Positions 13,905 to 37,686 of a DNA stretch of 64,000 bases are shown piece after piece. Positions within the stretch are counted from its first letter, which is position 1; each line of letters begins with the position of its first letter. A program made the translations under genes and the position numbers. A model generated the notes under the pieces. It saw only the letters and a list, made by a program, of their open reading frames with translations, was not told where the DNA came from and did not search any database. The DNA comes from a virus. The stretch is from UHGV virus genome UHGV-1370141; one strand, 5' to 3'.

Positions 13905-14492
13905 TTAGCAGGACGCACCAAGTTCTGAACAGGGATCTTCATCTTCCCAGTCAAAACTTCGCATACGTGCCCAGTTAATCTGCATGTCAACTTGCTGAAC
14001 GCGAGTAAGTCGATTGGAGCGATCTTCGTTGGATACCCAGTTCCAGATACGATCCTCGTCGTACTCCGTTGACATACCTGACGTAACTTCACGATAGTTA
14101 TCGTCAGTGTGCATGTACGCCGAGCCTCGGAATCGGTCTACCTTAGAGTAACCGTTCTCAAAGCCCGTCGCCATGTTATTGTTGTAGAGCTGTCGGTATT
14201 CCGGCATTGCAATTAAGAACGGTTGTAACGCCTCATTCGCAAACTGGAATTGCCCGATAGTTTCAAGTTGTCTTACTACATTCGTTGCATCGCTATTTTG
14301 AACCTTACGCGCAGCTGCGTACATTTCGCGGAAACGTTGCAATGAGATCAGTTCATTACACTTCTGCTTCACGCGCTCAACCATATCCGGTGCGAAACTA
14401 GACAGGTTAAAGTTCTCTTTGAAATAACGATACATACCGCTATTTTCGTCTTGACGCTGCCAAATAGACCCGCCTAGATTCCACATGCCCAT
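13905..14492 (-). CDS. hypothetical protein
   Basis: 195-aa ORF. Confidence 0.5.
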   Translation of the reverse strand: MGMWNLGGSIWQRQDENSGMYRYFKENFNLSSFAPDMVERVKQKCNELISLQRFREMYAAARKVQNSDATNVVRQLETIGQFQFANEALQPFLIAMPEYRQLYNNNMATGFENGYSKVDRFRGSAYMHTDDNYREVTSGMSTEYDEDRIWNWVSNEDRSNRLTRVQQVDMQINWARMRSFDWEDEDPCSELGASC

Positions 14493-14738: not shown

Positions 14739-15088
14739 CTGTTTGTCCACTCCATTCCTTTTGGAGCAGGTGTGCAATGACACCCTCCCATGTTTTCACA
14801 TGGGCACAGACTATATCATAACCGTAGGTATTGCTACCCGTAGGTCTCCCCCACTTCGCCGCTAAACTAAGCAGCTACTCTACTCGGTTTTACCCTTTCG
14901 ATAGTCGTTGAACGATTTTCATCGCTGCTGGTTATCCATTATCACAACCCTTAGCATTATTGGTTAGCATAGGCTATCTTACGAATTGTTTCTGACTTTC
15001 GCCACCCTGTCGGGATCGTAAGCTTTAGGAGTTTCCAGCAATTCGAGGGATACGCACTAGAGGTTTCCCGTCTAGTGGGCCAAATTTT
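14739..15088 (-). ncRNA. group I self-splicing intron (ORF-less, about 350 nt) interrupting the RNAP beta'-like gene
   Basis: Separates ...KAPNA from DFDGDQ...; 5' exon ends in U, intron ends in G; contains P-like ACGGGAAAC, Q-like AUCCCGACAG, R-like GUUCAACGACUA and S-like GAUAUAGUCU elements with complementary GACUA/UAGUC (P7). Confidence 0.8.
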
Positions 15089-16456
15089 AGCATTCGGAGC
15101 TTTGATGACGCGATCGGAGATACGTAACGAACACTGTGTAACATCAGGGTTAACAGCTGAGATAAATAATGTCTGAATAGACAACTGTACAAGCGTCGGG
15201 TTTCGTAGCGCTGATATCATCAGGCCGTAACCGCCACGAGACTCCTTAATAAGTTCGTTGATAATTTCATGAACCAACGGTACGTACTGCATTGATGCAA
15301 ATGCAATAACACGTTCACACTGCCGTGGTGTGAAGTTCCGTCGACCGAGTTTGTTTTCAATAGCTACAGATTCTAACGTCACTAGCCAACGCCAAGGTGC
15401 AATAACCTTCATAGCGTCATGCGGTTCTGAGATTGGAGAGATTGTTACACGACCACCCCACGGGATGTGTGTTGAACCTAACTTGGCACGATAGAATCCA
15501 GGTTTACCTTCCATCACCTCCTGACGATGGTCAATATAGAAGTACGCTAACTGGCGATTTGCTTTTAATGCGCGACTAATAATGAAATGGGTTGGGATGC
15601 GTCGTGCATTAGTATAAAGTAACGCGATGTTCTTAACCGCGTCTATTGCACCGGTATAAACAGGATCGATAAAGATACCCTGACGTCGTTCCTCCGTAAC
15701 GATCAGTTTGGGTGAAATGATTGGAAGATGAACCGGAAAGAAAGTGTGTGATTGTTCTTCGAAGAACTTTTTCCACTCTAAGCGAGTACGTTCGCTCTCA
15801 TATCGGTTATTTTTCGTTGGTGGATAAATTTCTTTCCAGACTTCAGGAGAAGTTAAGATATTGAATATTGTTCGATGGTGGTCAATAAAATTCCTAATGC
15901 CGCGTGGAACTTGATACTCGCTAAAGATACGTTTGATTATTCGGGATCGAGTACCTTCGTCTTTATCAGGTTTATAGCACGGATCTAACATCCACATCAA
16001 TAAATCAGAACCACGTTCTACGGTCACTTTGTTTCGGTTAAACTTCTTAAGTTTAGAACCGAAGAAAGCGTTAAACATCGACCAGAATCGTGGGTTAATA
16101 AAGTTGCCTATTTCCTCCGGGGCACGAATCCAGACTTCTGAAACAATACGATGTTCTGTCACTACATAGCCGCAGGTAGGACATCGCATACCGAGATTAT
16201 ATCGATGAACGATAGGTGCTTCACAATCAATACTACAAATGGGTGCCGAATTTAGCGTCTCGTCGACTGTCCGGTTCTGTAAGATTCGGTTAATCAACTC
16301 TGACGTCTCAATGGTGTCTTTATATTTCGCAACATCATTGATAATCATCGGCGGTTTATAGCCCTTTTCCTCCGCCTCTTTGAAAGCGTCACGTAACATT
16401 TTATCGTGACTGATTAATCGCCCTGATACACCGAAGTATTGTAATCTGTCTTTCAC
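15089..16456 (-). CDS. RNA polymerase beta' N-terminal-like subunit, exon 1
   Basis: GFYRAKLGSTHIPWGGRVTISPI resembles [32 protein letters not shown] resembles NRAPTLHRLGIQ; Cys cluster CPTCGY near the N-terminus; exon ends ...RVIKAPNA immediately before the catalytic motif. Confidence 0.75.
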
Positions 16457-22589: not shown

Positions 22590-23192
22590 TCACCCTTTCA
22601 TTTTAATCAAGAATGTAAATGACAAGAACAAACTACCCTGACCATAACCCGGATTATAGACTTTAATAGCAAGTTCCAGTCCAGAGACTTTTCCCTTATG
22701 CGCTGTACGAAACAGTTCTAAAGCAGGTCGACATTTCTCGTCAAACATTCTGACCAGCTCCTCACGAAACGTCTCAACAGCGTGCTCACGAAGAACATCC
22801 CAAGAGGAATCGCCTTGCAATTTACAGAACTCGTAAATTTCCAAAAGTGGTTTCATGTCATCGAGAACTGCGTCTGTATAACAGGTCTCCATCATTGACA
22901 TGAAATTCCACTGTCGATATTCCTTATTCAACCCTTTTAGGTATTTATCGAGTTTGGCTAACTCATTCTTGTTACCAGGAAACTTAATCGTACCGGAACG
23001 CTCGTTCAAGCATTTGTTGAAAATGCGCGTGACGTCATCGGGATTTTCAATATCCGTAGGTAATGAAATCGTTAGCTGGTCAAACAAATTCATCGATTTT
23101 ATCAGTAACTCTTTATAGAAGTCACCGCCGGAAACATATTCCAGTAAACCTAAATTCGGCTGAACAAAGTGATCGCCACGCACTTTATACAT
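22590..23192 (-). CDS. hypothetical protein
   Basis: 200-aa ORF; 3-nt spacing to next gene. Confidence 0.5.
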   Translation of the reverse strand: MYKVRGDHFVQPNLGLLEYVSGGDFYKELLIKSMNLFDQLTISLPTDIENPDDVTRIFNKCLNERSGTIKFPGNKNELAKLDKYLKGLNKEYRQWNFMSMMETCYTDAVLDDMKPLLEIYEFCKLQGDSSWDVLREHAVETFREELVRMFDEKCRPALELFRTAHKGKVSGLELAIKVYNPGYGQGSLFLSFTFLIKMKG

Positions 23193-23624
23193 TCAAACCT
23201 CTACTCGAATAAAACCTTTTCCCATCTCTTTCATAAACAAAGAGACTCTCGACCTTTTTGATCCTTCCTCTGCGGTATAGCCGCTTTCTCGCCACAAACT
23301 CTCCACCAACAAACGTATACGATGGTAGTCGATGCCTTTATCAATCTCTTCCCACATTAAAGAATGCGAAAAGATAATAACCTCATCTTCAGGATACATT
23401 TGTGACAACTGGGTGAGAATAAAATAGCGGTTGGGCGGGATGAACGTCAAAAACGTTTCACCCTCGCCCATCCGTTTAACGATAGAGCGTACCGATTCCT
23501 CAGCATACTTCGCCAGAAACAGATACGCCAAATCAGGTTTCACTTTACATTGATCCGCCATTTTAACTCGCGAAAGCAGTTGGTCCCGAAAGAACACTTC
23601 CGAAACTTCCATATAGAGTATCAT
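23193..23624 (-). CDS. hypothetical protein
   Basis: 143-aa ORF; true start may be an internal Met (M22, about 23561) because the track start overlaps the upstream gene by about 60 nt. Confidence 0.45.
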   Translation of the reverse strand: MILYMEVSEVFFRDQLLSRVKMADQCKVKPDLAYLFLAKYAEESVRSIVKRMGEGETFLTFIPPNRYFILTQLSQMYPEDEVIIFSHSLMWEEIDKGIDYHRIRLLVESLWRESGYTAEEGSKRSRVSLFMKEMGKGFIRVEV

Positions 23625-24069
23625 AACAGATAATCACCAATTCGCTAAAAGACTCACCTGACCAGTTTTCTAACTGACCTGGGAACATAGAGTTAATAAG
23701 TCCGGCTAACCCTGTTTGTGTTTCCAATTCACGAATGAGAATATCGGCAGCGGTTCCGATTGCGAGAATATGTTGGTCCTCAGTACCCTGCGTGGAAAGG
23801 AAGCTAATACTTTCTACCGTAGTACCTGGGATGGTATTCTCATCATACGCAACGGACATCACCATTTCTTTAAACAGTTCAGGATTACGGCTTTTCACAC
23901 CGATAATGTACGCAGTTGCAAAGTCCTCATAGAGTCGACGTATATCGTACTCTGATACGGACAACCTGCTTGTTTCGAGAACCTGCACTAAAACTTCGCG
24001 CACGGCGTCGTAGAACTTCAACCTGCCGTAATCAAGTACATGTTGTGCTACGTGAAAGTAGTATCTCAT
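23563..24069 (-). CDS. hypothetical protein
   Basis: 168-aa ORF; start abuts stop of the upstream gene. Confidence 0.5.
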   Translation of the reverse strand: MRYYFHVAQHVLDYGRLKFYDAVREVLVQVLETSRLSVSEYDIRRLYEDFATAYIIGVKSRNPELFKEMVMSVAYDENTIPGTTVESISFLSTQGTEDQHILAIGTAADILIRELETQTGLAGLINSMFPGQLENWSGESFSELVIICYDTLYGSFGSVLSGPTAFAS

Positions 24070-29894: not shown

Positions 29895-30042
29895 TAACGT
29901 AAGTCCGAACTTAATCGGTAGGTGTTTACACGTTTTTAAGGAGCTTTCTACCCGTGAGCAAGAGCAGAAGTTATCAGAACAACCGACGCTCAGTTGAAGG
30001 CTGACGAGTTTGTAACTCTTGTTCGATTGCTCTAATCTGGGC

Positions 30043-30115
30043 GACCAATGGCAGGATTCGAACCTGCGAAATAACCGATTATTAGTCGGGTGTTAATTCC
30101 TCTAACTTCAATGGT
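30043..30115 (-). tRNA. tRNA-like element (about 73 nt; anticodon uncertain, possibly pseudo-tRNA)
   Basis: Perfect T-arm GCAGG-TTCGAAT-CCTGC, 7-bp acceptor stem with one mismatch, anticodon-like stem-loop CCGA-CTAATAA-TCGG; D-arm weak and no encoded CCA. Hand-folded only. Confidence 0.4.
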
Positions 30116-30124
30116 CTAAATCCA

Positions 30125-30625: not shown

Positions 30626-30969
30626 TATGGCGAACCCCAATCCATGATGAACGTAGCCATGCACTGCTCGGCGTGTTTCATGATAGCTTTGTGCAAGCAT
30701 CTCTGAACCGCTGAGAACAGGTAAGGCCGATAACACACATGCGACTCCTTGGGAGACGGGGTGTGAGTAACCAACTGACCATCGGTGAGTTTAACACAAA
30801 CCGTAACAAGCTCTGTGTTTCGCCAATGGTTCACTGACACTGTCTCGATGCAGTTTAGCAGCGACGAATCATAACAACCCCAATTCTCGGGCGCTTTTAG
30901 CAGCCTGCCCAATTCATCGAGTCGGTACGGGACATTCGAACCGATGTTCGGAACGTCTTTGGAATCCAT
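30625..30969 (-). CDS. hypothetical protein, translationally coupled to the HslV-like gene
   Basis: Track ORF 30625..31065 starts with GTG and no SD; ATG at 30969 (M33) is preceded by AGGAGA; its stop overlaps the HslV-like start (TAATG). Confidence 0.45.
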   Translation of the reverse strand: MDSKDVPNIGSNVPYRLDELGRLLKAPENWGCYDSSLLNCIETVSVNHWRNTELVTVCVKLTDGQLVTHTPSPKESHVCYRPYLFSAVQRCLHKAIMKHAEQCMATFIMDWGSP

Positions 30970-31619
30970 ATTAAAATCTCCTGCCGTGGTTTGTGTCACA
31001 CCAACAGGAAACTCTGTAAAAAATAATTCAGCTGCGTACCGGCGTTTCTCAACGGGAGTACGCACCCCTCTCGTCTTTGCGAGCCGTCAAGCTAGAGGAC
31101 ATCACACTGCCAGCGCTACCTGGAGCAGGGTTGTTTCGACGCAACGTCGTAATTCGGATTCTGGCCGCACCTCTGGGAGCGCATCCCACCGTCGGCTGCC
31201 CGCAGGTAAGTTCTACGGACCTCTCGCCAACGTCGCCCCCAGAGGCTGCCACGGTTCACTCGGATTTTCTCATGTCGGCCACGCGTCGCTGATAGCGCGG
31301 CTTCCCCCAAACTTCGTAAGTCGCGGGAACGGTACCGAGCACCTGAATTCGTGGGGTTTACCAACCCCTGAGGTTTTTATCCGAAGTCACGGAAACCCCA
31401 TAGTAAAACAAACCGCCAGTGTTAGGCCGAACGTTTTGTTTTTCCCAGCACACGGTGAACTAAAATCCATGCACTTGAAAAAACACCCCTGGCCAATAAC
31501 CAACCAGGGGGTTCGAGCTCTGCTGAATCATCGCAGACAGTAATCGTGTTGAGCTGTGAGCAGTAATACCTGAACTCCGAAAAATCTTCGTGGTTGTAAA
31601 TCAACCCCACGCAAATCCT

Positions 31620-31857
31620 CCGAACATACCATAGGGTTTTAACGTTCGGAAAAGGGGAATGGGGGTTTACCCCTTGGGTCAGGTGTTCAGGATCTCCCCG
31701 GAAGGGTAACCCCTACCCGATCCCCCAGGTGGGGATTTTACCCTGGCGAATTACCCCGGGTACGATTTTCGGTTTTTCCGGAAAATACCGCTCACCGATC
31801 CCCACCCCCTCACCGGGGGTCAGAGCGAGATCAGATCTCATAATAAGGATCGCGCGC
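31620..31857. repeat. G-tract / C-tract rich structured flank of the AT-rich core
   Basis: Runs such as ggggaatgggggtttacccc, ccccggaagggtaacccctacccgatcccccaggtgggg, ccccaccccctcaccggggg; non-coding. Confidence 0.4.
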
Positions 31858-32270
31858 GTTTTATATATATTTATATATAATATATATTATATATAATAAT
31901 TATATTATTAATATATTTATTTAATATATTTATATTTATTAAAATAAATATATATTAAAATATATAATTAAATAATACCAAAAGGTATTATTATTTTGAT
32001 CCTAAAGGAATAATATATTTATAAATAAATATATTATACTATACGTGTGCGCACGCACACGCGTATAAGGAAGAGATCTTGAGATCAGGTTTTTGAGAGA
32101 GTTAAATTTTTAAGATCGATCCGAGAGACTTGAGGTCTCTCGAGAGTATTTAAAAAACCAAGCAAGATAACTACTCAACTTGAATCTTCAGTGTGTGAAG
32201 ATTCAAAACGTTGATCCAATCACTTGATCCGTTAGTACGCGAAGCGTGAATGTTTTTTTGATCGGCACGG
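31825..32270. promoter_or_regulatory. GATC-dense, palindrome-rich region around the AT core (candidate replication origin / DNA unwinding element)
   Basis: About 11 GATC sites in about 440 bp (expected 1-2), including agatcagatct, agatcttgagatcag, agatcgatcc; palindromes cgagagac-ttgag-gtctctcg and gaatcttca-gtgtg-tgaagattc. Confidence 0.4.
31858..32045. repeat. about 185-bp almost pure A/T tract (TATA/TAAT-rich) bounded by alternating GC elements
   Basis: tttatatatatttatatataatatatattatatataat... bounded by gatcgcgcgcg on the left and gtgtgcgcacgcacacgcg on the right; extreme compositional outlier in a ~48% GC genome. Confidence 0.8.
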
Positions 32271-32659
32271 CGGCTGGCCGTCGGGTGGCAGGGTCGGGTC
32301 TCACCCACCCCCGGCAAGGGGTCGTACGCTTTCTCAATCGCTCCACATCGCGCTAAACGGGGTCAGGTAACCCAAGTGTACTGGGTAGGGGTAAAAACCG
32401 CGTTAAAATCGTTTCTAGAGCGTTTTACGAAATCCGGTTAAAAAATCACCAACCGGATAGGGTTTCCAGAGACAATCCAGCACCCGGTTTTGGGGTTTGT
32501 TGCGGTTTGGGTTAAAATAAATTCTTCGACAGGGAATAAAACCCCGTCAAATTCTTCCTGAGAAGCTCTCTAACGAGAAAAACTCACCCAGGGTATACGA
32601 ACGTACCACCTCGACCTAAAAATGCGTTAGAATCGCTCTGAGGAGGTCGAAGTTTTTTT

Positions 32660-32711
32660 GGCAAAAAAAAAATAAAAAAAAACAGGTGGCCGAAGCCACC
32701 CGATATTTTTT
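32660..32711. terminator. bidirectional rho-independent terminator
   Basis: Hairpin ggtggc-cgaa-gccacc flanked by an about 20-nt A-run and an 8-nt T-run; immediately downstream of the 32712 gene on the minus strand. Confidence 0.6.
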
Positions 32712-33836
32712 TTACGGACAGACCTGTTCTTTCTGAGGGTAGTGCAGTTTTACCTCCAACAGGCTGTAGCCCGTGGCGTAGAAAATCTGACTCCCCACTG
32801 AAGCCACAAAGCCTTCAGGGTCAATCACCTCAACGGAGAAATCCGATTCGAAAAGCCAGGTTTCTTGCTTACCGTCTCGTTCGAATACCGCTGCATAGCG
32901 ACCGTACTCCGCACCCCGTCGGAAGCGGAAAAGCGTTAACCCTGTTTCACGTTCGTAACCGGAAATCACACCCCCTTCCTCGAAAATCTCGGCACGGTTA
33001 CAGCGGGTAACGGTCAATAACGCCGGTCGTTGTGTTGGAATGGTTTTGAACGGGGAAGGCCCTTCGTATGTCGTTGAGACCCAGTCTCCCATGTTGTCCA
33101 GCGCTAACGCTCGGTATGCGATAGGGGACTTGTAATTACACAGCCGATTCCCTTCCGTGTACATCGTGTATTCGATACGTAACGTCGTACCGACGATGTC
33201 TTCCAGGGAAAGTTTGTAGTGTTCTAACTGTGCCTGAATACGTCGTGAGAGTATCGTGCACAGGAAGGTGTGTCCTTCGGAAGAACGACAAACGATTCCG
33301 TAATCCGTTACGGCCAAAAGCGTCGCATCGGTTTTACGGACAGGTTCTAATCGGAATGTGTGTTCACCCGTTTCGATGATAAACTGGGAAACGGCTTGGT
33401 TACGGGATTTGACTTTAATCATGTCAAATACGTCACCGGCTTTTACGATTAATGGCTCAACAACGTTCACCTGGAAAGGCAAGGGTTTCGTGGGATACTG
33501 GCCTAGTGTGGTAATCGTTACCGAACTGAGTTCGGGGTCTGATGCGTCAGGGTCACTAGACAGCCAGTACGTTAACCACTTAGACAGCGTTTGTGGGATA
33601 ACACGGGTGGTGTAAAATAACACCTCGCCTTGTAACCCTGCTTCCGCCAGTTCTCGTGCTAAGAACGAGTTGACGGCGTCGTAAGTACCGTTACGCAGGA
33701 TGTCCATCCCACCGACTCTGTCCAGGTCACAAATCACGCCGTGAGGAAGCACCCACATCTTGACTTGTTGTTCGCGGTCGATGGTACCTTCACGCAACAT
33801 CTTGTGCCAAGCAGGTTTGCGCAGATAATTTCTCAT
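32712..33836 (-). CDS. hypothetical protein
   Basis: Track ORF 32712..33869 trimmed to the ATG at 33836 (M12), which is preceded by AAAGGAG; promoter motif upstream. Confidence 0.55.
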   Translation of the reverse strand: MRNYLRKPAWHKMLREGTIDREQQVKMWVLPHGVICDLDRVGGMDILRNGTYDAVNSFLARELAEAGLQGEVLFYTTRVIPQTLSKWLTYWLSSDPDASDPELSSVTITTLGQYPTKPLPFQVNVVEPLIVKAGDVFDMIKVKSRNQAVSQFIIETGEHTFRLEPVRKTDATLLAVTDYGIVCRSSEGHTFLCTILSRRIQAQLEHYKLSLEDIVGTTLRIEYTMYTEGNRLCNYKSPIAYRALALDNMGDWVSTTYEGPSPFKTIPTQRPALLTVTRCNRAEIFEEGGVISGYERETGLTLFRFRRGAEYGRYAAVFERDGKQETWLFESDFSVEVIDPEGFVASVGSQIFYATGYSLLEVKLHYPQKEQVCP

Positions 33837-35341: not shown

Positions 35342-35581
35342 TCAATGGGCCCCGGATACCGCTAATAGGTGGATGGTGTACACCAAGTTTAGAGCGTAAG
35401 TCGTTGATGTCCCTGCCACCATTAATCCGAATACTGCTACCGCCTGCGCATACCGCGTCGTACGATGACACACACCGTGCGATGCACCGTATCGTTCTAT
35501 CGATTGGTAACTGTGTCTAATCATTTTGTACGTCGCGATCCACGAAAAGAACACGAGCAAATAGTAAATTGGAGCCATCAC
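35342..35581 (-). CDS. small hydrophobic (probably membrane) protein
   Basis: 79 aa with two hydrophobic segments (IYYLLVFFSWIATY, AVAVFGLMVAGTSTTYALNLVYTIHLLAV); start overlaps the terminase stop (ATGA). Confidence 0.4.
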   Translation of the reverse strand: MMAPIYYLLVFFSWIATYKMIRHSYQSIERYGASHGVCHRTTRYAQAVAVFGLMVAGTSTTYALNLVYTIHLLAVSGAH

Positions 35582-37686
35582 TTCATCCTCTGGCGTTGGA
35601 GAAGCTCTCTCAAGCTTTCCATTGACGCCACGTTTTGTGTATCAGTGTTAAGTTGAGAGATGAGGGCCTGAAGTCGGTTACGAGCGGCCATTGCTTGAAC
35701 CGGGTCGAGTAACCCGTGAGTCGTTCTCACTAACTGCTCAATTTCCCCCATCAGTTTTTGCTGTCGCGCTTCCTCTTCGAGCTGTAACTCTTCGTCCACC
35801 CCTTCCCGGTTTTCTGCCAAGTTACGATTACGCATCATCAATCGGCTGTTGTTGATCTCGTAATGTCCTAAGTTATTCCCAAGTAGCAATAACCACATCG
35901 CAAGTAACCAAGAAATCACAAGGTCATCGTGACCGGATGCTTTGTGGTCGATACGACCATTTTTCTCCACGAGGTTAAGAATTTGGTCGATGAGCTCTCC
36001 ACAACGGAGTTTATCGGCAGACAAGCGCAACGCGGTGGTGAATACCTCACCGTACAGTTTACGACGTTTCTCCTGGTCGGTTGAGAACCCGATGTATTTG
36101 CGGAATTTATTCCAGAATTTCTCTGCGCTCCCCACTGGGCCACGGTGATACTCTTTGTAGAGATCGTCCGTACGCGAGTAGTCCTGGGTGATTCGCACAA
36201 ACAAACGACGGTGTAAATCGGGTACCCGTGATTGCAATTGCAGGATAACCGCATCTGCAACGGATGAGCCTGTTGAGCGTCGTTCCAGAATCAGTACCGT
36301 GTTCGGATATCGCACCATAAAATCCGCTAAATGGATCGCGAACGAAATAACGTTGGATTCATTAACGGTAAGCTTACCGGCGTACTCGGCCGTGACTGAG
36401 TTGACGATGGACATGGCGATCGCATCTCGACCTACGGCTTCGGAGGTATCCAAACCGATGACATGACGATCTTTGAGTTTCATCATCATTTCTTCTTCGG
36501 TGTAGTACCAGTCGGTAACGTAGTTTTGTGGCGAGATATCTTTGAACACTGCACGCATTCGTGAAGCATTCATACGATCTGCATCTTCCGCTGAGAACGG
36601 CTTGTTCAGACCACCGGTCGTCCATTCGCCACCGAAGTCACGACGGATCTGGTCAGGGGTACCTTTGGCGTTCGCAATCATTGCCGCTAACTGTTCATCT
36701 GTGGTCCCGAGCTGACGGTGGTTGTACTTCACGTAGAACATGATACGTGGGACTTCTGCCGTGGAGTTAGAACGGATGATGTCAATGAGCTGTTTACGGG
36801 TTGGAATGTCGATATAGCGCTCATCCCACATAATCCCTGACGTCATCAGCTCGTACATGTACTTGCCTTCTTCCGTCGCTAAGTCACCAGGGGTTGTTGC
36901 GAATACGTTACCGTAAGGAACACCTTCCGCTTCGTTAATACGACGTGCCGCTGTACCGGATGCCAGCGCTGCCGGTAGAATGTGGTGTACGTTTTTGGTA
37001 AAGGGGCCTTCGTCCGAGAACAGACGACCAGCAGTAAGTCCACGACCGATACCGTTAGCGGACTCTGGGTCGTTTTGGCCGATACCTGTAATCAGTTTAT
37101 TACCCTGAGCTAAACACGCAAAGGTTTCTCGGTTATCTGGGTCATCAGGATGCGCTGGCCAGAGGTAACTCGGTAAACCGTTACGAAGTTGTTTCAGTTT
37201 GTTGATAGTTTCTTCACGCAGTGCCGGGCCTTTTGTGATAAGAATTGTTCGGGAGTTTTCTAAGAAACGAATCAACCACAGCAGTAAACCACTCATCCCG
37301 ACGGTTTTACCGTGCTGACGCAAGAACTCGACAGCAACGTCGATGTTGTTAAAGAAAATCCAGTACATCGAGAAGTTACCACGGTCGATACGGAACGGGG
37401 AACCGTACTTCATACCGTCCGCAGGCACCCTGACACATTCCCTGAACCAGTACCACGGGTTCTCAGCACATTCGATGGCGATGTATGCCTTCATCTGTTC
37501 TGAAAGGTTTTCATCGAACGGGTCTACGCCCTGCAACAGTGGGTTATGCAACGCCAGGTGAATATACCAGTGTTTGACACCCAGTTTTTTCAGTAAGTTA
37601 GCAAACTTGATAAAGGATTTGTTTGTTGTTTTATCGTCAACAATAGCGCCTGGATAATAACGCCAGTCCGATTCACGTAGTATCAT
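35578..37686 (-). CDS. terminase large subunit
   Basis: Deviant Walker A LRQHGKTVGMSG as in T4 gp17 (SRQLGKT); nuclease-domain-like IGLDTSEAVGRDAIAMSIV; 702 aa. Confidence 0.6.
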   Translation of the reverse strand: MILRESDWRYYPGAIVDDKTTNKSFIKFANLLKKLGVKHWYIHLALHNPLLQGVDPFDENLSEQMKAYIAIECAENPWYWFRECVRVPADGMKYGSPFRIDRGNFSMYWIFFNNIDVAVEFLRQHGKTVGMSGLLLWLIRFLENSRTILITKGPALREETINKLKQLRNGLPSYLWPAHPDDPDNRETFACLAQGNKLITGIGQNDPESANGIGRGLTAGRLFSDEGPFTKNVHHILPAALASGTAARRINEAEGVPYGNVFATTPGDLATEEGKYMYELMTSGIMWDERYIDIPTRKQLIDIIRSNSTAEVPRIMFYVKYNHRQLGTTDEQLAAMIANAKGTPDQIRRDFGGEWTTGGLNKPFSAEDADRMNASRMRAVFKDISPQNYVTDWYYTEEEMMMKLKDRHVIGLDTSEAVGRDAIAMSIVNSVTAEYAGKLTVNESNVISFAIHLADFMVRYPNTVLILERRSTGSSVADAVILQLQSRVPDLHRRLFVRITQDYSRTDDLYKEYHRGPVGSAEKFWNKFRKYIGFSTDQEKRRKLYGEVFTTALRLSADKLRCGELIDQILNLVEKNGRIDHKASGHDDLVISWLLAMWLLLLGNNLGHYEINNSRLMMRNRNLAENREGVDEELQLEEEARQQKLMGEIEQLVRTTHGLLDPVQAMAARNRLQALISQLNTDTQNVASMESLRELLQRQRMK

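Follow-up and report, generated by a model that had tools for sequence, protein, structure and literature searches.

A conserved AT-rich non-coding locus of an SPN3US-like jumbo phage as a possible replication-initiation and control region

What is the role of a long non-coding gap in which closely spaced runs of G and C flank a core of pure A/T sequence, in a jumbo phage whose replication start is to be found? In this study, we analysed a 64,000-nucleotide (nt) stretch of the virus genome UHGV-1370141 (in the following, the window), in which such a gap separates two minus-strand genes, and compared it with the homologous gaps of related phages. A preliminary description of the stretch had read the G/C tracts as telomere-like repeats able to fold into G-quadruplex (G4) or i-motif structures or extensive hairpins, and had guessed at a contribution to origin or packaging function. 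We find this guess plausible when it is applied to the entire locus, which is unique in the genome and conserved across genera, while it does not rest on the G tracts, which are the least conserved parts of the locus. We tentatively propose, with confidence that stays just short of even, that the 1.74-kb locus is the replication-initiation and control region of SPN3US-like (Chimalliviridae-type) jumbo phages.

The window phage is itself a jumbo phage and kin to Salmonella phage SPN3US and to the Erwinia phages phiEaH2 and Asesino, with which its structural genes share ~75% nucleotide identity. The protein of 385 amino acids (aa) encoded beside the gap shares 63% identity with its phiEaH2 homologue and 57% with that of SPN3US, and a 224.5-kb metagenomic contig has 96% identity across the region. 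Homologous gaps were gathered from SPN3US-like Salmonella phages, phiEaH2 and Asesino (Erskinevirus), pEa_SNUABM_29, SPAsTU, Huxley and Caitlin (Machinavirus), Wellington, and IMG/VR and metagenome contigs, and the right flank was aligned 11-way, with a separate alignment of the close clade. Three viral-contig matches to our search patterns (L016, L021 and L022) and ~20 metagenome matches were set aside as unrelated chance hits. The following features make up the gap, its core and its right-hand side:

30970..32711, no strand: non-coding gap of 1742 base pairs (bp) between the 114-aa and 385-aa minus-strand genes
31827..31858, no strand: left border module GAGATCAGATCTCATAATAAGGATCGCGCGCG with three GATC sites, TAATAAGGATC and (CG)4, present in nearly all relatives
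31859..32039, no strand: AT core with pure-A/T stretches of 119 nt and 30 nt
31971-31992: central palindrome AATAATACC-AAAA-GGTATTATT, which together with GATCCTAAAGGA at 31998-32009 splits the AT blocks
32040..32067, no strand: perfect alternating purine-pyrimidine tract TATACGTGTGCGCACGCACACGCGTATA of 28 nt, Z-DNA-prone and quasi-palindromic
32068..32270, no strand: GATC/hairpin array with seven GATC sites
32074-32086 and 32122-32142: palindromes within the array
32180-32206: conserved-loop hairpin TTGAATCTTC-AGTGTGT-GAAGATTCAA, with changes on both sides in 5 of 8 stem pairs
32237-32247: GCGAAGC-type mini-hairpin whose stem varies in relatives while the loop type is kept
32370..32386, no strand: conserved hairpin ACCCA-AGTGTAC-TGGGT, with a CCCAAGTGTAC core in most relatives
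32683..32712, minus strand: intrinsic terminator of the 385-aa gene, GGTGGC-UUCG-GCCACC and a U-run, terminator-like on the plus strand too

The anatomy of this locus, its uniqueness in the genome and its conservation can be read directly from the compared sequences. The order of modules is identical in all relatives, comprising Seoulvirus, Erskinevirus, Machinavirus, Wellingtonvirus and the metagenomic relatives, and runs from the three-GATC border with TAATAAGGATC and (CG)n through a pure-A/T block, the central palindrome and a second A/T block ending in GATCCTNNAGGA to the alternating tract, the GATC/hairpin array, the conserved motifs ACCCAAGTGTACTGGGT and GGTTAAAAA and the UUCG-loop terminator. 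The layout with a short palindrome between two AT blocks is conserved, and the palindrome arms covary (AATACC/GGTATT, AATATC/GATATT, ATCCC/GGGAT). In the 243-kb genome of phiEaH2, the sole pure-A/T run of at least 25 nt, the 200-bp window with the highest AT content and the bin richest in GATC all fall at the locus, and the border motifs GATCCTTATTA, GATCCTNNAGGA and TGGTTAAAAA are confined to it, GATCCTTATTA occurring once. The alternating tract is the longest GC-containing one in the window, and tracts of 15-28 nt with differing sequence occupy the same position in 11 of 12 relatives.

A second conserved property is the clustering of GATC. Between 31691 and 32263, 14 sites fall within 573 bp, compared to 1.36 expected (P 2.5e-10) and to 6 in the next-best window, and individual sites are conserved across genera. 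The motif is otherwise strongly depleted, the non-coding locus being the exception: where base composition predicts ~3.9/kb, the phiEaH2 genome has 1.44/kb and the window 2.6/kb. phiEaH2 encodes a D12-class (Dam-family) N6-adenine methyltransferase at 23062-23880 (PF02086, 5.7e-59).

Since the locus combines a unique meltable A/T core and palindrome with torsion-sensitive flanks, a GATC cluster, locus-specific motifs and dense hairpins, we infer an origin-like function. The AT core with its central palindrome, which has Z-prone alternating tracts and locus-specific motifs containing GATC on its two sides, is read as an easily unwound, cruciform-capable element that would be opened by negative supercoiling or by leftward transcription. 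Once the core is open, the strands exposed in this way would extrude hairpins, and methylation-dependent control may be provided by the GATC cluster.

The detrended cumulative GC skew of phiEaH2 reaches its minimum ~2 kb from the AT core, which would favour this proposal, although the position is confounded by gene orientation. Several observations weigh against it. At third codon positions, the GC skew of phiEaH2 does not clearly flip where the locus lies, and that of the window shifts only weakly. Both genes flanking the gap share their direction, so that no strand switch occurs here, and no initiator gene is recognisable beside the locus, where the neighbours lack Pfam, NCBIfam and PDB matches. 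We observed no clear iteron array in the locus, only short or two-copy direct repeats. Large phages of such kind may depend mainly on recombination-dependent replication. Finally, the anatomy described above could serve transcription alone, which leads to the left side of the locus:

31027..31525, minus strand: candidate structured RNA of ~500 nt, referred to as Block A, with 13 helices and 82 pairs
31478..31510, minus strand: terminator-like hairpin CCCCTGGTTGGTTATTGGCCAGGGG followed by a U-run
31526..31826, no strand: variable segment rich in G/C runs and hairpins, referred to as Block B, which holds the left-flank strings of the preliminary description

Block A sits directly upstream of the minus-strand (leftward) operon and is conserved in all relatives and genera examined. 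RNAalifold yields -76.1 kcal/mol and 82 pairs for the minus strand, compared to -32.9 kcal/mol and 56 pairs for the plus strand. In the minus-strand structure 93.5% of cells are paired vs 85.7% in shuffles, and 30 pairs are changed on both sides vs 17.1 in shuffles (0 of 500), while in controls with slid partners pairing falls to 37-47%. Each sequence contains 8-15 G.U pairs, many of them invariant, which correspond to A.C mismatches on the plus strand. In the held-out Wellington-like lineage, which was unused in deriving the structure, 55 of 64 pairs form, with 11 compensatory pairs. The stem of the hairpin at 31478-31510 (helix 2) covaries in relatives beside an invariant TCGAAAAA, pair 52/101 being CG in 5 and UA in 4 cases and pair 54/99 CG in 6 and UA in 4, and its U-run also pairs with the downstream A-rich strand in the consensus fold. 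No Rfam family matches the gap at gathering score, the best match of an E-value scan reaching 17 bits (E = 0.35). With its strong covariation, Block A appears to be an undescribed structured RNA of SPN3US-like jumbo phages.

The well-supported minus-strand RNA immediately upstream of a minus-strand operon would suit a locus that served transcription only. The AT core and its borders would then be a promoter or regulatory region for phage RNA polymerase with no replication role, driving the leftward operon (structured leader RNA or non-coding RNA, 114-aa gene, HslV-like peptidase, tRNA), and the flanking hairpins would be RNA structures or terminators. Terminator-like hairpins on both strands are consistent with this, and so is the minus-strand border motif TCCTTATTAT, which has TATTAT in common with a promoter-like consensus, ATAGATATTATC. 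That early promoters of jumbo phages are AT-rich (PMC7598289) counts in the same direction. The consensus ATAGATATTATC, 11-12 nt long, is present in 10 copies in phiEaH2 and in 4 copies in the window (33884, 28584, 26199 and 4840, minus strand), is identical in two genera and always lies sense-oriented 40-50 nt upstream of start codons, often after an A-rich stretch; as judged from this placement, it is probably the phage RNA-polymerase promoter consensus of SPN3US-like phages. However, ATAGATATTATC is absent from the gap and the border motifs are unique to the locus, the right-flank hairpins have no RNA strand preference, and the ~180-bp pure-A/T core, the palindrome, the Z-prone tracts and the 10-fold GATC cluster together far exceed the needs of any known phage promoter. 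We consider a purely transcriptional role the main rival of an origin, though the less likely of the two. Two further promoter candidates were discarded: a TTTTTTAC-type motif as general promoter, which has 4 copies only in the window, and matches of a sigma-70 scan, which are trivial within A/T sequence in phages that use their own RNA polymerases.

Our proposal of a replication origin could also be combined with transcription. Block B is G-skewed on the minus strand, and in 9 of 10 relatives the 60 nt adjoining the AT-core border have a GC skew of 0.12-0.45 on that strand, so that the first ~60 nt of the predicted leftward transcript from the GATCCTTATTA border would be G-rich in these relatives. 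On this basis, origin firing might be transcription-coupled, with a persistent R-loop or hybrid G-structure beside the core as primer, comparable to the role of ColE1 RNA II and of mitochondrial conserved sequence block II (CSB II). General G-richness beside the core, and not any specific G tract, would then be under selection, and the downstream structured RNA would be part of the primer or a regulator. We assign this variant a slim chance. Block B aligns poorly between genera, and over 31470-31861 a consensus RNA structure could be detected only for local hairpins. The window sequence of Block B, folded as minus-strand RNA, has z = -4.15, and GGGG-N3-9-CCCC-type seeds lie at 31661-31673, 31722-31734 and 31805-31819.

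The packaging part of the earlier guess can be assessed from the surroundings and continuity of the AT core. The gene of the large terminase (TerL, 35578-37686) lies 3 kb further right of the gap, a GATC cluster is present, and the core or its immediate surroundings contain the start or end of several GenBank records and of three IMG/VR contigs. These features would suit a packaging-initiation (pac) site for terminase, like the methylation-controlled, GATC-rich pac site of phage P1, with which the locus shares clustered GATC motifs near a terminase gene. However, the genome-length metagenomic contigs L042, L044 and L050 are continuous through the core, and breaks in 100% A/T sequence are an expected artefact of assembly and coverage. 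In contrast to P1 pac, the locus moreover lacks TGATCA/G hexamer symmetry around a cleavage site, and SPN3US and phiKZ, as well as the phage family, are thought to package by a T4-like, sequence-independent headful mechanism (PMC5694885). A pac site is accordingly, in our estimate, improbable.

The length of the first A/T block (31859-31977 in the window) varies even among close relatives, with 119, 96 and 51 nt in the clade of the window phage and 54 vs 71 nt in two SPN3US-like phages. Breaks within this block or next to it are seen in three IMG/VR contigs, in one metagenome contig and in several GenBank records. Both variation and breaks are probably caused by slippage in combination with assembly or coverage drop-out. 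We rejected record and contig ends as evidence of physical termini, since bp 1 is set by convention, other contigs cross the core and breaks in A/T sequence are artefactual. A protelomerase site of the N15 telRL type, a long perfect palindrome centred on TACGCGCGTA, was rejected as well: the 28-nt alternating tract, which resembles such a site in TATACGCG...CGCGTATA, is only quasi-palindromic, lies off to one side of the core and is crossed by the continuous genome-length contigs.

It remains to be asked what the G/C tracts themselves are, for which the following elements have to be considered:

31654-31673: ggggaatgggggtttacccc, quoted string of the left flank
31800-31814: ccccaccccctcacc, quoted string of the left flank
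32283-32312: gggtggcagggtcgggtctcacccaccccc, quoted string in G tract 1
32283..32321, plus strand: G tract 1, with the minimum-free-energy fold GGGTcGGGT-ctc-ACCCACCC plus CCCCC-ggcaa-GGGG
32434..32456, no strand: hairpin CCGGTT-aaaaaatcacc-AACCGG
32486-32513: ggttttggggtttgttgcggtttgggtt, quoted string in G tract 2
32486..32513, plus strand: G tract 2 (GGTTTTGGGGTTTGTTGCGGTTTGGGTT), with a G4Hunter score of 1.28, the best within 32270-32520

All four strings quoted in the preliminary description are located where it had placed them, and the enrichment of closely spaced runs is real. The whole gap contains 26 G/C runs of at least 4 nt vs 4.4 expected (Poisson 2e-12). The effect is strong in the left flank (31620-31857), where 11 runs compare to 0.6 expected, a number reached by 0 of 5000 mononucleotide shuffles, and modest at 32270-32520, on which the preliminary description had centred, with 5 runs vs 0.64 expected (P 5e-4; shuffle P 0.03). 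A G/C-run density of 2-8x background is common to all relatives, while the positions of the runs are not shared.

The comparison with telomeres could not be sustained, as the tracts form no tandem array and have no periodicity. Self-identity at periods 5-12 is flat (0.25-0.30), and Tandem Repeats Finder (TRF) reported nothing except a (TA)n-like array within the AT core and a weak 10-mer in 2 copies (score 33). The resemblance arises because one single TTTTGGGG unit is present. With ciliate telomere repeats, (T4G4)n, and canonical G4 motifs the locus thus shares this unit and several G3-5 runs, but it differs from them in having neither a tandem array nor four G3+ tracts at loops of up to 7 nt, in the lack of conservation of its tracts and in the pairing of its G runs with neighbouring C runs.

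G4 and i-motif folding fared no better. The canonical motif G3+N1-7 (four tracts of at least 3 nt, loops of 1-7 nt) occurs zero times on both strands of the 64-kb window and is missing from the homologous gaps of 10 relatives. Upon relaxation of the loops to 12 nt, the window yields 4 motifs, including a minus-strand motif in the left flank (31696-31726) that is missing in the relatives L006 and L017. An opposite-strand scan of the window for i-motifs (four C tracts of at least 3 nt, short loops) gave none, CCCCACCCCCTCACC consisting of two long C runs only. G4Hunter was run with a 25-nt window, hits being counted at >=1.2 and values of 1.5 or more taken as clearly above background. At 32270-32520 its maximum is 1.28 with a single hit >=1.2, which is not significant, since 7.9% of random 251-bp regions of the window match it. 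The left flank has 3 hits >=1.2 (P ~7e-4), among them the top value of the window, |1.8|, at 31785-31814, where the minus strand is the G-rich one; the top-scoring site contains only two long runs, which make up one half of the hairpin CCCCC-TCACC-GGGGG. When 32270-32520 was folded as single-stranded DNA, it did not outperform shuffles (z = -0.27), and the left flank has z = -1.17.

The preliminary description had itself named the absence of the tracts from syntenic relatives as evidence that would speak against it, and both right-flank tracts are indeed gapped or replaced there. The columns of tract 1 (32283-32312) are gaps in 4 of 11 relatives and unrelated sequence in the remainder. At tract 2 (32486-32513), 5 of 11 relatives have a gap, whereas SPLA1a, SNUABM29 and SPAsTU carry C-rich sequence and L006 and L007 unrelated sequence. 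Even in the close clade, the tract-bearing segments 32280-32325 and 32440-32516 are the most diverged, amid nearly invariant blocks. Judged by this sequence comparison, the G4 reading is largely refuted. That the tracts fold into a G4 or i-motif acting in origin or packaging could draw on the enrichment of runs, on the left-flank G4Hunter maximum with its relaxed-loop motif and on the minus-strand G skew beside the core in 9 of 10 relatives; against this stand the missing canonical motif, the non-significant score at 32270-32520, the loss of tracts even at ~70% flank identity (with the neighbouring protein at 88%) and the complementary C runs, which flank the G runs and compete as hairpins. 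We give this reading hardly any credence.

What stood of the structural claim is the alternative of extensive hairpins. Of the 19 right-flank G/C runs of at least 3 nt, 11 lie at a distance of 3-9 nt from a complementary one, compared to 2.6 +/- 2.1 in dinucleotide shuffles (P = 0.003), and in the left flank this applies to 11 of 20 runs vs 6.7 in shuffles (P = 0.08). Across relatives, 17 of 20 flank segments lie above their own shuffle mean for nearby complementary runs, and 5 of the 9 distinct GGGG-N3-9-CCCC-type seeds of the window are located in the gap. Folded as RNA, both flanks exceed shuffles on either strand (z -2.7 to -4.5), as expected because the sequence is dense in inverted repeats. 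In the right flank, the consensus RNA structure consists only of local hairpins. The minimum-free-energy fold of 32283..32321 pairs the G runs of tract 1 with the adjacent C runs. Several hairpins hold their position while the stem sequence differs between relatives, as at 32434-32456, where L006 and L007 (~70% flank identity) carry GGGTGGG-ttttcgt-CCCACCC instead. From the spacing of complementary runs, the folds and the replacement of stems in relatives, the tracts are therefore best described mostly as GC stems of small hairpins together with fast-evolving spacer.

Units akin to a further motif recur in the same region. In the phiEaH2 genome, TGGTTAAAAAGTG is confined to the right end of the locus, where it has two copies 22 nt apart (164709-164731), and related GGTTAAAA units are found in other relatives (32434-32456 region of the window). 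From their sequence, these units could be iteron-like protein-binding sites. At the right edge of the gap, which is the 3' end of the 385-aa gene, the stem of the terminator at 32683-32712 covaries freely, while its CGAAG/UUCG loop is invariant in 11 relatives, a clean case of a conserved intrinsic terminator in phages using their own RNA polymerases.

To the left of the gap, the minus-strand 114-aa gene, with a likely start ATG at 30969 and the upstream ribosome-binding site aggagat, is followed by the HslV-like peptidase gene and then by a tRNA. We found no conserved open reading frame (ORF) in the gap, the relatives carrying non-homologous small annotated ORFs or none, and the gap alignments contain indels that are not multiples of 3. 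The 199-aa ATG ORF at 30944-31543 (plus strand), which overlaps the structured-RNA region, was rejected as coding in view of its missing family matches, its lack of conservation and frame-breaking indels, and is almost certainly spurious; the other small ORFs of the gap were rejected on the same grounds. The label 'putative DNA ligase' on a neighbouring gene in two records is unsupported in this analysis. The tRNA at 30040-30116 (minus strand) is called by ARAGORN as tRNA-Ile with the anticodon AAT, unusual in bacteria (Rfam tRNA, 40.1 bits), and relatives have a tRNA-Trp at the corresponding position. Further away, at 14787-15099 on the minus strand, a group I intron matches the full-length Rfam model RF00028 with 63.7 bits; it sits between ORFs 13905-14492 and 14957-16456 and presumably interrupts a phage gene.

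The reading of the tracts as a G4 or telomere-like element is ordinary and essentially refuted, and the surrounding locus matters more. In the literature searched, the start of replication in nucleus-forming jumbo phages is undescribed, and a 2026 jumbo-phage review mentions no replication origin. The locus offers a concrete origin candidate in the form of a single non-coding module, unique in the genome and conserved across at least 4 genera. Not the G tracts but the conserved AT-core locus and the neighbouring structured RNA are worth following, and either could be useful for jumbo-phage engineering or for replicons working inside the phage nucleus.

Among known systems, E. coli oriC and phage P1 oriR resemble the locus in their AT-rich core and strong local GATC cluster, the motif being otherwise scarce in the genome; the host bacteria belong to the Dam+ Enterobacterales, and a D12-class methyltransferase is found in the phage lineage. 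In contrast to these origins, the locus lacks DnaA and RepA boxes as well as a recognisable iteron array, and its core is much longer and purer in A/T, with a central palindrome and alternating purine-pyrimidine tracts. The phage, moreover, replicates inside a phage nucleus.

Transcription-primed origins are represented by T4 oriF/oriG, the T7 primary origin and ColE1 RNA II. They share with the locus an AT-rich unwinding element adjoining a highly structured or G-rich RNA, whose transcription is predicted in our case. R-loop formation or transcriptional activation would be possible, given that RNA polymerases of its own and an RNase H-like protein are encoded by the phage. The AT core differs in its position, lying upstream and not downstream of the inferred leftward transcript.

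The origins oriS and oriL of herpes simplex virus contain a palindrome whose A/T centre extrudes hairpins, and GCGAAGC-type mini-hairpins have been reported at some viral origins. The locus has no sequence similarity to oriS/oriL and no known UL9-like initiator, is far larger and includes an RNA gene. It nevertheless shares with them an A/T-centred palindrome flanked by conserved short motifs, and with its GCGAAGC, or GNA-triloop, mini-hairpin at 32237-32247 it carries a further element of the kind reported at viral origins.

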